Below are positions 52,311-62,073 of a DNA stretch of 63,318 nt, in pieces; the first letter of the stretch is position 1; every line of letters begins with the position of its first letter. Where the stretch lies: the NCBI GenBank assembly GCA_964016885.1, contig CAXHJY010000468.1, positions 1 to 63,318 on the forward strand, in the 5' to 3' direction. The notes beneath the pieces were generated by a model, which made no database searches, was not told where the DNA came from, and worked only from the letters and a program-made list of their open reading frames with translations. The translations under genes were made by a program, and so were the position numbers. This DNA is from Eledone cirrhosa. Its lineage: Eukaryota.

Positions 52311-55300
52311 GTGAATATAGATATAGAATATTCGAAAATATTCTGTATGTTTATAATAAACATTTTGAAGACCTAATCGCTATAGAATAGAATACGTCAC
52401 GTATTACAATTAGATTCTCGATAAAAGCAAGGGAAGTAATCTACGCGTTTCATTCTTGTTAGAATTCATCAGGACTACATATCCAGTGCTTTTATCGAGA
52501 ATGACACAGCTAGAGACTTATAGAATACTTAGCTGTGTACAGGAACTGGTTTGAAAGAGCGGTTGCCGGTCCGGCAGAAATTAGAAATTGGAATAAATGC
52601 TCTGAAATAGCGATATATATGTGAATATAGATATAGAATATTCGAAAATATTCTGTATGTTTATAATAAACATTTTGAAGACCTAATCGCTATAGAATAG
52701 AATACGTCACGTATTACAATTAGATTCTCGATAAAAGCAAGGGAAGTAATCTACGCGTTTCATTCTTGTTAGAATTCATCAGGACTACATATCCAGTGCT
52801 TTTATCGAGAATGACACAGCTAGAGACTTATAGAATACTTAGCTGTGTACAGGAACTGGTTTGAAAGAGCGGTTGCCGGTCCGGCAGAAATTAGAAATTG
52901 GAATAAATGCTCTGAAATAGCGATATATATGTGAATATAGATATAGAATATTCGAAAATATTCTGTATGTTTATAATAAACATTTTGAAGACCTAATCGC
53001 TATAGAATAGAATACGTCACGTATTACAATTAGATTCTCGATAAAAGCAAGGGAAGTAATCTACGCGTTTCATTCTTGTTAGAATTCATCAGGACTACAT
53101 ATCCAGTGCTTTTATCGAGAATGACACAGCTAGAGACTTATAGAATACTTAGCTGTGTACAGGAACTGGTTTGAAAGAGCGGTTGCCGGTCCGGCAGAAA
53201 TTAGAAATTGGAATAAATGCTCTGAAATAGCGATATATATGTGAATATAGATATAGAATATTCGAAAATATTCTGTATGTTTATAATAAACATTTTGAAG
53301 ACCTAATCGCTATAGAATAGAATACGTCACGTATTACAATTAGATTCTCGATAAAAGCAAGGGAAGTAATCTACGCGTTTCATTCTTGTTAGAATTCATC
53401 AGGACTACATATCCAGTGCTTTTATCGAGAATGACACAGCTAGAGACTTATAGAATACTTAGCTGTGTACAGGAACTGGTTTGAAAGAGCGGTTGCCGGT
53501 CCGGCAGAAATTAGAAATTGGAATAAATGCTCTGAAATAGCGATATATATGTGAATATAGATATAGAATATTCGAAAATATTCTGTATGTTTATAATAAA
53601 CATTTTGAAGACCTAATCGCTATAGAATAGAATACGTCACGTATTACAATTAGATTCTCGATAAAAGCAAGGGAAGTAATCTACGCGTTTCATTCTTGTT
53701 AGAATTCATCAGGACTACATATCCAGTGCTTTTATCGAGAATGACACAGCTAGAGACTTATAGAATACTTAGCTGTGTACAGGAACTGGTTTGAAAGAGC
53801 GGTTGCCGGTCCGGCAGAAATTAGAAATTGGAATAAATGCTCTGAAATAGCGATATATATGTGAATATAGATATAGAATATTCGAAAATATTCTGTATGT
53901 TTATAATAAACATTTTGAAGACCTAATCGCTATAGAATAGAATACGTCACGTATTACAATTAGATTCTCGATAAAAGCAAGGGAAGTAATCTACGCGTTT
54001 CATTCTTGTTAGAATTCATCAGGACTACATATCCAGTGCTTTTATCGAGAATGACACAGCTAGAGACTTATAGAATACTTAGCTGTGTACAGGAACTGGT
54101 TTGAAAGAGCGGTTGCCGGTCCGGCAGAAATTAGAAATTGGAATAAATGCTCTGAAATAGCGATATATATGTGAATATAGATATAGAATATTCGAAAATA
54201 TTCTGTATGTTTATAATAAACATTTTGAAGACCTAATCGCTATAGAATAGAATACGTCACGTATTACAATTAGATTCTCGATAAAAGCAAGGGAAGTAAT
54301 CTACGCGTTTCATTCTTGTTAGAATTCATCAGGACTACATATCCAGTGCTTTTATCGAGAATGACACAGCTAGAGACTTATAGAATACTTAGCTGTGTAC
54401 AGGAACTGGTTTGAAAGAGCGGTTGCCGGTCCGGCAGAAATTAGAAATTGGAATAAATGCTCTGAAATAGCGATATATATGTGAATATAGATATAGAATA
54501 TTCGAATGATGAATTCTAACAAGAATGAAACGCGTAGATTACTTCCCTTGCTTTTATCGAGAATCTAATTGTAATACGTGACGTATTCTATTCTATAGCG
54601 ATTAGGTCTTCAAAATGTTTATTATAAACATACAGAATATTTTCGAATATTCTATATCTATATTCACATATATATCGCTATTTCAGAGCATTTATTCCAA
54701 TTTCTAATTTCTGCCGGACCGGCAACCGCTCTTTCAAACCAGTTCCTGTACACAGCTAAGTATTCTATAAGTCTCTAGCTGTGTCATTCTCGATAAAAGC
54801 ACTGGATATGTAGTCCTGATGAATTCTAACAAGAATGAAACGCGTAGATTACTTCCCTTGCTTTTATCGAGAATCTAATTGTAATACGTGACGTATTCTA
54901 TTCTATAGCGATTAGGTCTTCAAAATGTTTATTATAAACATACAGAATATTTTCGAATATTCTATATCTATATTCACATATATATCGCTATTTCAGAGCA
55001 TTTATTCCAATTTCTAATTTCTGCCGGACCGGCAACCGCTCTTTCAAACCAGTTCCTGTACACAGCTAAGTATTCTATAAGTCTCTAGCTGTGTCATTCT
55101 CGATAAAAGCACTGGATATGTAGTCCTGATGAATTCTAACAAGAATGAAACGCGTAGATTACTTCCCTTGCTTTTATCGAGAATCTAATTGTAATACGTG
55201 ACGTATTCTATTCTATAGCGATTAGGTCTTCAAAATGTTTATTATAAACATACAGAATATTTTCGAATATTCTATATCTATATTCACATATATATCGCTA

Positions 55301-56250
55301 TTTCAGAGCATTTATTCCAATTTCTAATTTCTGCCGGACCGGCAACCGCTCTTTCAAACCAGTTCCTGTACACAGCTAAGTATTCTATAAGTCTCTAGCT
55401 GTGTCATTCTCGATAAAAGCACTGGATATGTAGTCCTGATGAATTCTAACAAGAATGAAACGCGTAGATTACTTCCCTTGCTTTTATCGAGAATCTAATT
55501 GTAATACGTGACGTATTCTATTCTATAGCGATTAGGTCTTCAAAATGTTTATTATAAACATACAGAATATTTTCGAATATTCTATATCTATATTCACATA
55601 TATATCGCTATTTCAGAGCATTTATTCCAATTTCTAATTTCTGCCGGACCGGCAACCGCTCTTTCAAACCAGTTCCTGTACACAGCTAAGTATTCTATAA
55701 GTCTCTAGCTGTGTCATTCTCGATAAAAGCACTGGATATGTAGTCCTGATGAATTCTAACAAGAATGAAACGCGTAGATTACTTCCCTTGCTTTTATCGA
55801 GAATCTAATTGTAATACGTGACGTATTCTATTCTATAGCGATTAGGTCTTCAAAATGTTTATTATAAACATACAGAATATTTTCGAATATTCTATATCTA
55901 TATTCACATATATATCGCTATTTCAGAGCATTTATTCCAATTTCTAATTTCTGCCGGACCGGCAACCGCTCTTTCAAACCAGTTCCTGTACACAGCTAAG
56001 TATTCTATAAGTCTCTAGCTGTGTCATTCTCGATAAAAGCACTGGATATGTAGTCCTGATGAATTCTAACAAGAATGAAACGCGTAGATTACTTCCCTTG
56101 CTTTTATCGAGAATCTAATTGTAATACGTGACGTATTCTATTCTATAGCGATTAGGTCTTCAAAATGTTTATTATAAACATACAGAATATTTTCGAATAT
56201 TCTATATCTATATTCACATATATATCGCTATTTCAGAGCATTTATTCCAA
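52311..56250. mobile_element. Retrozyme-like element, 310-bp family variant 1: about 7.1 units (52311-54506) plus about 5.6 inverted units (54507-56250)
   Basis: Period 310 (gtgaatatag at 52311, 52621, 52931 and onward). Switch at ttcgaa|tgatgaattc. One HHR per unit. Confidence 0.92.
54810..54852 (+). ncRNA. Minimal type I hammerhead ribozyme, representative of the 310-bp units
   Basis: gtagtc CTGATGA attct-aaca-agaat GAAAC-GC-GTA gattac: palindromic ACGCGT stem III, predicted cleavage after 54846; enclosed by a perfect 16-bp helix attctcgataaaagca/tgcttttatcgagaat. Confidence 0.93.
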
Positions 56251-59800: not shown

Positions 59801-62073
59801 TCTAATTGTAATACGTGACGTATTCTATTCTATAGCGATTAGGTCTTCAAAATGTTTATTATAAACATACAGAATATTTTCGAATATTCTATGTCTATAT
59901 TCACATATATATCGCTATTTCAGAGCATTTATTCCAATTTCTAATTTCTGCCGGACCGGCAACCGCTCTTTCAAACCAGTTCCTGTACACAGCTAAGTAT
60001 TCTATAAGTCTCTAGCTGTGTCATTCTCGATAAAAGCACTGGATATGTAGTCCTGATGATTTCTAACGAGAATGAAACGCGTAGATTACTTCCCTTGCTT
60101 TTATCGAGAATCTAATTGTAATACGTGACGTATTCTATTCTATAGCGATTAGGTCTTCAAAATGTTTATTATAAACATACAGAATATTTTCGAATATTCT
60201 ATGTCTATATTCACATATATATCGCTATTTCAGAGCATTTATTCCAATTTCTAATTTCTGCCGGACCGGCAACCGCTCTTTCAAACCAGTTCCTGTACAC
60301 AGCTAAGTATTCTATAAGTCTCTAGCTGTGTCATTCTCGATAAAAGCACTGGATATGTAGTCCTGATGATTTCTAACGAGAATGAAACGCGTAGATTACT
60401 TCCCTTGCTTTTATCGAGAATCTAATTGTAATACGTGACGTATTCTATTCTATAGCGATTAGGTCTTCAAAATGTTTATTATAAACATACAGAATATTTT
60501 CGAATATTCTATGTCTATATTCACATATATATCGCTATTTCAGAGCATTTATTCCAATTTCTAATTTCTGCCGGACCGGCAACCGCTCTTTCAAACCAGT
60601 TCCTGTACACAGCTAAGTATTCTATAAGTCTCTAGCTGTGTCATTCTCGATAAAAGCACTGGATATGTAGTCCTGATGATTTCTAACGAGAATGAAACGC
60701 GTAGATTACTTCCCTTGCTTTTATCGAGAATCTAATTGTAATACGTGACGTATTCTATTCTATAGCGATTAGGTCTTCAAAATGTTTATTATAAACATAC
60801 AGAATATTTTCGAATATTCTATGTCTATATTCACATATATATCGCTATTTCAGAGCATTTATTCCAATTTCTAATTTCTGCCGGACCGGCAACCGCTCTT
60901 TCAAACCAGTTCCTGTACACAGCTAAGTATTCTATAAGTCTCTAGCTGTGTCATTCTCGATAAAAGCACTGGATATGTAGTCCTGATGATTTCTAACGAG
61001 AATGAAACGCGTAGATTACTTCCCTTGCTTTTATCGAGAATCTAATTGTAATACGTGACGTATTCTATTCTATAGCGATTAGGTCTTCAAAATGTTTATT
61101 ATAAACATACAGAATATTTTCGAATATTCTATGTCTATATTCACATATATATCGCTATTTCAGAGCATTTATTCCAATTTCTAATTTCTGCCGGACCGGC
61201 AACCGCTCTTTCAAACCAGTTCCTGTACACAGCTAAGTATTCTATAAGTCTCTAGCTGTGTCATTCTCGATAAAAGCACTGGATATGTAGTCCTGATGAT
61301 TTCTAACGAGAATGAAACGCGTAGATTACTTCCCTTGCTTTTATCGAGAATCTAATTGTAATACGTGACGTATTCTATTCTATAGCGATTAGGTCTTCAA
61401 AATGTTTATTATAAACATACAGAATATTTTCGAATATTCTATGTCTATATTCACATATATATCGCTATTTCAGAGCATTTATTCCAATTTTCTAATTTCT
61501 GCCGGACCGGCAACCGCTCTTTCAAACCAGTTCCTGTACACAGCTAAGTATTCTATAAGTCTCTAGCTGTGTCATTCTCGATAAAAGCACTGGATATGTA
61601 GTCCTGATGATTTCTAACGAGAATGAAACGCGTAGATTACTTCCCTTGCTTTTATCGAGAATCTAATTGTAATACGTGACGTATTCTATTCTATAGCGAT
61701 TAGGTCTTCAAAATGTTTATTATAAACATACAGAATATTTTCGAATATTCTATGTCTATATTCACATATATATCGCTATTTCAGAGCATTTATTCCAATT
61801 TCTAATTTCTGCCGGACCGGCAACCGCTCTTTCAAACCAGTTCCTGTACACAGCTAAGTATTCTATAAGTCTCTAGCTGTGTCATTCTCGATAAAAGCAC
61901 TGGATATGTAGTCCTGATGATTTCTAACGAGAATGAAACGCGTAGATTACTTCCCTTGCTTTTATCGAGAATCTAATTGTAATACGTGACGTATTCTATT
62001 CTATAGCGATTAGGTCTTCAAATGTTTATTATAAACATACAGAATATTTTCGAATATTCTATGTCTATATTCA
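56807..62073. mobile_element. Retrozyme-like element, 310-bp family variant 2: about 8.1 units (56807-59316) plus about 8.9 inverted units (59316-62073)
   Basis: Period 310. Three fixed differences from variant 1 (agaCatag, attctCgtt, gaaAtcatc). Switch at gcgatata|atttctaa. Confidence 0.92.

Follow-up and report, generated by a model that had tools for sequence, protein, structure and literature searches.

How does a short non-coding repeat come to stand twice in one microsatellite, each time as two arms in opposite orientation and each time nearly letter-uniform, and yet in two different versions? The question is raised by contig CAXHJY010000468.1 of Eledone cirrhosa (assembly GCA_964016885.1), whose entire stretch of 63,318 bp, referred to here as the window, is a long (AT)n/ATGA microsatellite hosting many inserted elements; among them are two arrays of a 310-nt unit that carries a hammerhead ribozyme motif. 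A first-pass annotation had proposed that each array was copied in one event from a single RNA molecule, read many times round from an internal priming site, and had preferred a circular template over unequal crossover or a linear cleaved monomer. In our analysis the favoured reading, to which we give a probability of about 0.68, is that a Penelope-like reverse transcriptase (RT)-endonuclease twin-primes a one-unit RNA circle, the RT itself rolling in most insertions. The two arrays of the window alone could not carry this claim, and most of the support comes from a genome-wide sample of insertions, whose loci are designated below by L numbers. Statements about the cited papers refer to the portions of their text that were available.

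Two mirror-image arrays in the window

The arrays and their surroundings are listed here, with unit positions numbered from the predicted hammerhead cut and with A and B denoting the two sites at which the arms end outwardly.

49936-52302, no strand: left flank, (AT)n/ATGA microsatellite
52303-54506, minus strand: left arm of array 1: 7.11 units of the 310-nt repeat in variant 1, with site A at its outer end and unit position 106 at its inner end
54507-56251, plus strand: right arm of array 1: 5.63 units in variant 1, with position 281 at its inner end and site B (165) at its outer end
54810-54852, plus strand: one copy of the type I hammerhead motif, from sequence reading and a motif scan; predicted cut between 54846 and 54847
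56252-56805, no strand: inter-array spacer, 554 bp of (AT)n/ATGA microsatellite, the target sequence
56806-59316, minus strand: left arm of array 2: 8.10 units in variant 2, with site B (165) at its outer end and position 135 at its inner end
59316-62082, plus strand: right arm of array 2: 8.93 units in variant 2, with position 163 at its inner end and site A at its outer end
62083-63080, no strand: right flank, (AT)n/ATGA microsatellite

The arms of both arrays are head-to-head, with their sense strands directed outward from the centre. Array 1 shows no difference from one reference unit in 3,949 bases, and its two arms meet at 54506/54507 with zero overlap. Array 2 departs from it at unit positions 120 (A>G), 287 (A>T) and 295 (A>G) in all units of both arms; its further differences are only two private 1-nt indels (61488 and 62020) and one change within the terminal AT run, the last element letters of the right arm lying near 62073. 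Unit-by-unit comparison thus confirms the earlier description of one variant per array, with three fixed differences and no mixing, and the measured spacer and arm lengths agree with the roughly 550 bp and the non-integer 7.1/5.6 and 8.1/8.9 units given there. The outer ends had been placed about 130-165 nt past the cut; these positions are right, but they are two discrete sites and no range, each used once per array (A at ~139 on the left and B at 165 on the right of array 1; B at 165 on the left and A at ~130-139 on the right of array 2). The microsatellite keeps ATGA on the plus strand, with a GC skew near +1, over nearly the whole contig (1-63080) despite the many inverted inserts, and since it runs in a single orientation nearly throughout, the flanks were not inverted along with the inserts.

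Each two-armed insertion pairs an A with a B end

Genome-wide, the outer ends fall at two discrete sites some 30 nt apart: A, 129-139 nt past the cut, which an internal AT run makes imprecise, and B, at 159-173. Our first sample took the first 100 exact B ends on chromosome C1 with 10 kb each. An inverted partner arm ending at 138-139 lies within the 10 kb in 92 of them and appears on extension in 3 more, so that A stands at the other end in all 95 two-armed insertions selected by B; the remaining five have no partner arm longer than 50 nt (one abuts a gap and one has a 16-nt stub). To counter the bias of selecting by B, a second sample took the first 100 A ends, of which 53 lay inside loci already sampled and 47 were new. 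These 47 comprise 34 insertions with a partner arm, 12 with a single arm and one that runs off, and the partner ends observed are at 159-173 in 31 of 31 and never at A. Among the two-armed insertions of both samples with both ends seen, no A+A or B+B insertion of the 310-nt family occurs. An AT run of at least 10 adjoins the A end in 92 of 92 cases; at the B end, AT was part of the search pattern.

This pair of ends is the "tail" of Penelope elements, ca. 30-40 nt present at one end only. Craig et al. 2021 (PMC8557442) name as Penelope marks (TA)n targets, a copy that is both inverted and 5'-truncated, and a tail of 30-40 bp that is usually confined to one end; they ascribe the tail to endonuclease resolution, leaving the tandem and inverted structure unexplained and the cycle undefined. 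Frangieh et al. 2024 (PMC11167929) worked with purified Penelope protein, a predicted dimer: it nicks AT-rich DNA on both strands and extends the two, and in vitro it begins reverse transcription at a pair of neighbouring positions inside the RNA, between which the tail lies. In the Anolis Penelope these two starts lie roughly 85-90 nt past the cut, against 130-170 nt in the 310-nt unit. Penelope-like elements (PLEs) have in common with our unit the tail, the inverted 5'-truncated copy, the (TA)n target and a minimal hammerhead (PMC8557442, PMC11167929, PMC4209133); unlike the autonomous ones, the unit has no RT or endonuclease frame, and its arms reach up to 45 units. The pairing of one A with one B end is counted here; that each strand of an insertion takes one start is not stated in the available portions of the Penelope papers.

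The strict A+B pairing suggests that the two starts are shared out between the target ends, one to each. Two priming sites and two complementary DNAs (cDNAs), one per target strand, would tie the insertions to Penelope-like machinery and at the same time explain the inversion, and we regard Penelope twin priming as having very high probability. The internal priming site of the first-pass annotation is therefore supported as an internal start but was incomplete, there being two sites and two cDNAs per insertion.

One template per insertion

Both arms carry the same haplotype in 61 of 64 insertions on C1 (25 haplotypes), against 9.7% for arms of different insertions, and the mean number of haplotype differences is 0.08 within an insertion and 3.06 between insertions (the same 64, with arms of at least 2 units). 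In the second sample the arms match in 19 of 19 insertions (11 haplotypes), for a pooled 80 of 83, which rules out the alternative of two independent insertions at one site. The comparison of units within and between arrays that had been proposed as a check thus bears out, genome-wide, what the window displays. These counts exclude the innermost 45 nt of each arm, and an early sample biased to units like variant 1; six of the 100 B loci, without a partner arm in 10 kb, were left out of the variant counts, 30 of 94 insertions with an arm shorter than 2 units out of the haplotype count, and L180 and L187, repeats of L070 and L085, out of the second sample.

Moreover, 21 variant records are confined to one of 125 two-armed insertions and yet are present in all 4-24 copies of both its arms, although at least three of them (284C, 292T and 210A) also occur in arrays outside that set. 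A one-unit change that fills a whole new array, many times over, calls for a one-unit bottleneck followed by re-expansion, and a circle is, with good confidence, that bottleneck.

The same records bear on the alternative in which the RT copies uncut multi-unit transcripts of genomic arrays, the uniformity being that of young, uniform sources and no circle being involved. Such copying cannot spread a new one-unit mutation array-wide, yet there are 25 haplotypes in 64 insertions and the 21 insertion-confined variants; arms could, moreover, only get shorter from one generation to the next. There are at present 0.15 single-unit variants per unit, and some 270 units lie in shared register; many patterns common to both arms would then be expected, provided that the source arrays carried even part of today's variant load, whereas two events are seen. 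On the other side, the mixed-haplotype pattern in both arms of L098 (described below) speaks for this alternative, L072, L190, L215 and L218 also fit one mixed multimer, and minimal hammerheads cleave poorly in vitro (PMC4209133). As a general explanation we consider it improbable; by a rough estimate it probably accounts for ca. 5-10% of the insertions.

Uniform from birth

If the arrays had begun as short insertions and been evened out afterwards by unequal crossover or gene conversion, as in the satellite model, variants should be repeated along them. The non-fixed variants, however, stand for the most part in one unit each (131 of 144 records over 276 kb). Of particular use here is an older sister family with a 321-nt unit (L107:5850-6652 and L151-L170), the copies of which are 88-96% alike. 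It is ca. 75-80% alike to the 310-nt unit over positions 59-235, the region around both end sites, and mostly has the same two end sites, L170 reading A at both ends. Its units differ by 5.6% within arrays (67 pairs) and by 6.05% between arrays (1,341 pairs; 54 units in 18 arrays, with L158 and L167 left out as repeats), the second figure being lowered by the choice of arrays for their likeness to one query. As the sister family is about equally diverged within and between arrays, its arrays have evidently decayed without homogenisation, and uniformity belongs to their birth. Unequal crossover is accordingly not the origin of the arrays, as the first-pass annotation had maintained. The pattern that it had named as contrary evidence, variants interspersed within arrays, is seen in arms of 19-45 units; the marks of concerted evolution known from satellite DNA are otherwise lacking and appear in part only in arms of at least 19 units.

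Further points speak against later homogenisation: the inverted arms match, partial end units included, and arrays only 554 bp apart keep different haplotypes. The uniformity could also be an artefact of assembly consensus, but rare haplotypes and singletons persist, which majority polishing would erase; an artefact is excluded only indirectly. In favour of recombination or misassembly are the block-repeated variants in the arms of at least 19 units and the pair L073:6971-9593 and L150 (at 64.29 and 277.06 Mb on C1), which differ in their flanks but have in common the centre junction and the length of the A arm, with B arms three units apart. Taken together, satellite-type homogenisation or a consensus artefact is highly unlikely as the cause.

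Inner ends, centre junctions and arm lengths

With insertion in one step by a Penelope-like enzyme as the favoured reading, the inner ends of the arms inform on the template. A cut site is crossed by 176 of 188 arms, and the inner end falls no more than 5 nt from the cut in 5 of 188 arms (6.1 expected) and in 1 of 62 in the second sample; because cut sites are crossed and inner ends do not pile up at the cut, a cleaved linear monomer read once is excluded. A variant of that idea, in which one linear monomer is re-used and the RT jumps repeatedly from its 5' end to its 3' end, would mimic a circle, having the same bottleneck and internal start, and one-base insertions just past the cut do occur as inherited haplotypes (8 insertions). 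Yet 13,924 units of the genome have no letter changed across the cut, unit-to-unit variation there is at background in the sample, stops are not enriched at the cut, and jumps would also reach other molecules and so mix haplotypes. We take this variant to be highly unlikely.

At the centre, 63 of 93 junctions have no inserted letters, and 38 of these 63 overlap by at least 2 nt, compared with 18.75% for random joins (p 4e-13; L070, which offers no anchor, was left out). The other 30 hold inserts of 1-168 nt, many of them copied from nearby unit sequence, though some of these "inserts" may be a private variant near the junction. Templated junction inserts are a product of end-joining repair. 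The junction of L147 holds a 123-nt insert of repeated 8-11 nt pieces from an adjacent unit hairpin, resembling repeated re-priming in end joining. The two arms average 4.5 and 5.4 units, are correlated in length (rho 0.36) and reach 45 units. Two simpler geometries were rejected. Fold-back of one arm on the other does not fit, the A arm being the longer in 39 of 94 insertions and the B arm in the rest, and single-unit variants not being mirrored; and array 2 suggested that an arm might end where the opposite one has its start site, but this does not hold in general, A arms ending at 150-185 in 4 of 93 and B arms at 120-150 in 11 of 93.

Rolling RT or uniform multimer

Uniformity by itself cannot separate a rolling RT from an RT that copies a uniform multimer transcribed from a circle. 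In this second case twin priming would be as described above, but the template would be a linear multimer made by RNA polymerase on a monomer circle, either of RNA, as in viroids, or of extrachromosomal DNA; the circle would be the bottleneck and the RT would not roll. Such a scheme predicts the same uniform arrays and the same one-unit bottleneck, finds errors of one multimer in the single variants that stand in both arms in or near register (L081, L190 and L215), and expects correlated arm lengths from a shared template length. It demands, on the other hand, an extra step that the available literature does not demonstrate for animal retrozymes, the inner ends do not accumulate at the cut, the place at which a multimer that had been cleaved should stop, and in the first sample 81 variants are present in one arm only despite a same-register unit opposite, against two shared events. 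We therefore hold it to be unlikely, albeit the foremost competitor. For the circular template of the first-pass annotation this means that the one-unit template stands, and the rolling RT is the likelier of two readings that would give the same uniform arrays.

Several observations weigh against a circle read by a rolling RT and need to be set beside it. Variants present in only some units of both arms occur in 5 of 125 insertions (L072, L081, L098, L190 and L215), and the same pattern is found in L218, from a biased sample; three of the cases are in exact register from the outer ends. In L098 the haplotype switches within both arms: the two outermost units carry one common haplotype and the inner ones, up to 15 of them, another, in register from the outer ends. 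Cases of this kind are the most direct sign that the two arms were read from one molecule, yet a molecule of several units. Either the template was multi-unit or both arms went through a joint template switch, and uncut multimers are probably used as template at times. Arms of 19-45 units (L062, L063, L085, L214 and L044) have block-repeated or interspersed variants with periods of 7, 18 and 27, which points to post-insertion duplication or misassembly in these longest arms. The insertions without a partner arm over 50 nt (12 of the 47 A-selected and 5 of the 100 B-selected) likewise do not follow the two-armed scheme, and single-armed insertions amount to about one tenth overall. Finally, no autonomous partner was found: the unit is unlike all four Penelope-like termini in the window, and no shared termini turned up beside PLE-like open reading frames (ORFs) in the sampled loci or by the sister-family search, the genome search not being exhaustive. 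A comparison of locus L053 with four sequencing runs gave no contig joining both flanks, which is uninformative on an empty site.

A possible course of events

Twin priming was described for L1 elements: two target ends prime two cDNAs on one RNA, and their joining 3' to 3' by microhomology gives an inversion. The two L1 cDNAs correspond to separate portions of a linear RNA, with a second start that varies, whereas here both starts are fixed and the arms run over the same sequence repeatedly. Combining this with twin priming on a circle, we envisage that array transcripts would self-cleave via dimeric hammerheads and ligate into monomer circles, and that a Penelope-like RT-endonuclease would cut an (AT)n tract on both strands, whereupon two cDNAs would be primed on a single RNA at the two sites ca. 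30 nt apart. Each polymerase would read the one-unit circle several times round, the cDNA stop being roughly random. The two cDNA 3' ends might then anneal by 1-6 nt of microhomology, or be joined by repair with small templated inserts, after which each cDNA could serve as second-strand primer for the other, giving the head-to-head mirror. A minority of insertions would derive from multi-unit RNA or have one strand primed, and very long arms would have been altered later by duplication.

The unit as a retrozyme

The hammerhead of the unit is built of a 6-bp helix I, a CUGAUGA core, a 5-bp helix II, GAAA and a palindromic CGCG helix III, one per unit; from its sequence it is of the minimal, dimer-type kind with a very short helix III, and self-cleavage is predicted. 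In Rfam the window gives no match at gathering score, hammerhead included. The GC content of the unit is 34% (106 of 310 letters), and its length and composition are inside the retrozyme range of ~150-450 bp and less than ~45% GC. It is non-coding, no frame of at least 100 codons lying inside the arrays except frames made up mostly of flanking microsatellite, and it lacks a long terminal repeat (LTR), the array ends adjoining (AT)n directly. The predicted circular fold is stable, with z of -5.6 and -4.4 against 60 shuffles. In the 3.0-Gb genome there are 13,924 exact matches to a 39-mer spanning the cut, 995 exact B ends and 1,159 exact A ends, all of them lower bounds as exact-match counts; the family thus amounts to about 14,000 units at more than 1,000 (AT)n sites.

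Judged by sequence, the unit is a non-LTR retrozyme, every testable mark of the metazoan kind being present. Like those of metazoans (PMC7229834, PMC7761336, 10.64898/2026.07.22.740005), it forms tandems of 150-450 bp units with low GC, one type I hammerhead per unit and no LTR or coding capacity. It differs in that metazoan retrozymes are described as head-to-tail tandems without defined ends, whereas here there are head-to-head mirrors with A and B ends, and in its hammerhead, the minimal kind with palindromic helix III; minimal hammerheads of this kind work as dimers (PMC4209133). The non-autonomous elements of Chlamys, such as MRC1 (PMC8557442), are likewise non-coding Penelope dependants in multicopy head-to-tail form, but they have no canonical hammerhead and have 3' ends in common with a known autonomous family, whereas the 310-nt unit has a hammerhead and no known partner.

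The inherited variants carry a bias that suggests a process at the RNA level. On the sense strand, A>G makes up 11 of 37 inherited changes versus 11 of 135 single-unit changes (p 0.0014, the direction of the changes assuming the chosen base haplotype), and 9 of the 11 inherited A>G sites lie at predicted paired positions. The excess fits A-to-I editing or selection for an RNA structure tolerant of G-U pairs, and either way would be acting at the RNA level. None of 42 inherited variants falls on the 12 hammerhead core positions, against 5 of 173 single-unit variants, a contrast too small to stand alone.

Among the runs listed as holding the unit there is no RNA run, which is uninformative either way. 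The unit is present in runs under 17 organism labels from 16 studies. Three runs with other organism labels (X1, X3 and X12) each yield one 340-nt contig (unit plus 30) matching a haplotype found here (L053:611-1013), and two of the three also contain a neighbouring high-copy repeat, at ~1/7-1/9 of the contig's depth, a ratio close to that in X2, a run that looks like the same species. Given these depths trace DNA is the simpler reading of an apparent horizontal spread, with horizontal transfer or an RNA circle as possible alternatives, and we make no evidential use of these runs.

Other elements in the window

The pair of one short and one long end is not peculiar to the 310-nt unit, being found also in the RT-coding element and the 466/467/471-nt repeats of the window. 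The former is:

43306-49938, two head-to-head arms: RT-coding Penelope-like element, with ORFs at 43824-47012 (minus strand) and 46957-49362 (plus strand)

Its left end is short and its right end ca. 58 nt longer (the tail), its arms are 99.6% alike in protein, and its termini are unlike those of the 310-nt unit; the match to RVT_1 (E 2e-4) is below the curated cut-off. Two tiny non-coding insertions (13845-14082 and 35665-36053) have the tail region of this element in common with it (84% over 77 nt for the one at 35665) and likely form with it an autonomous/non-autonomous pair. Two more families of hammerhead repeats, of 467 nt and 466/471 nt (1201-2843, 4530-5885, 30915-34844 and 40557-41253), are also head-to-head, with the short and the long end of each insertion ~60-75 nt apart. 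A single-armed Penelope-like element at 6813-10900 has RT and GIY-YIG matches, a hammerhead motif at 10699 and a second, upstream frame of 425 codons overlapping the RT frame. PLE-like frames with a CxC-type linker are situated at 17553-19436, 21868-23445 and 38391-40406 (no Pfam match in the two that were scanned); such frames are very common in the sampled loci and possibly belong to the Hydra clade. The short insertion at 13545-13640 has a minus-strand hammerhead motif resembling the variant 2 core of the 310-nt unit, and its terminal 19 letters are the same as those of the small element at 35665-36053.

Significance

The mechanism favoured here is an already published hypothesis. Cervera and de la Pena proposed circles as templates of cDNA longer than one unit, with Penelope elements as the probable helpers (PMC4209133, PMC7229834, PMC7761336), and the review among these (PMC7761336) notes that retrozyme repeats have no motif indicating the helper element. 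Li, Clavereau and Pollet 2026 (10.64898/2026.07.22.740005) tie retrozymes to pseudo-LTRs by phylogeny and favour local amplification, leaving the mechanism open, while Frangieh et al. (PMC11167929) proposed uncut multimer templates for autonomous elements, hammerhead cleavage being dispensable in their assay. What appears new is the two-armed build with one tail and the haplotype counts per insertion: a literature search reaching few subscription journals and no supplements retrieved no report of two-armed retrozyme insertions or of haplotypes per insertion; the word "inverted" is absent from the available text of PMC7229834, and that of PMC9977147 has nothing on multicopy insertions.

The origin of tandem, inverted and tailed Penelope insertions, called unexplained in the papers of the field, is here made countable, and the reverse transcription of ribozyme circles, a hypothesis since 2014, gains its counts from a young family of ~14,000 units. 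One A and one B end per insertion make a concrete model of two starts, two strands and one RNA; haplotypes fixed per insertion indicate a one-unit bottleneck at birth; and the RNA, its start sites and its target are now named for a test-tube assay. Satellite-like arrays can, on this evidence, arise in one step without recombination, and an enzyme that could be programmed to turn RNA circles into DNA concatemers written into a genome or other DNA would be of technical interest. A further-reaching and speculative reading, unlikely at present, is that the arrays are snapshots of single RNAs from a population of ribozyme circles that mutate, are edited (sense-strand A>G) and undergo selection at the RNA level, perhaps with viroid-like RNA-to-RNA replication in the time between insertions. 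If so, the genome of E. cirrhosa would have recorded a viroid-like animal replicon one molecule at a time, more than 1,000 times over, and the tandem, inverted and tailed structure of Penelope insertions in general would come from twin priming on a circle.

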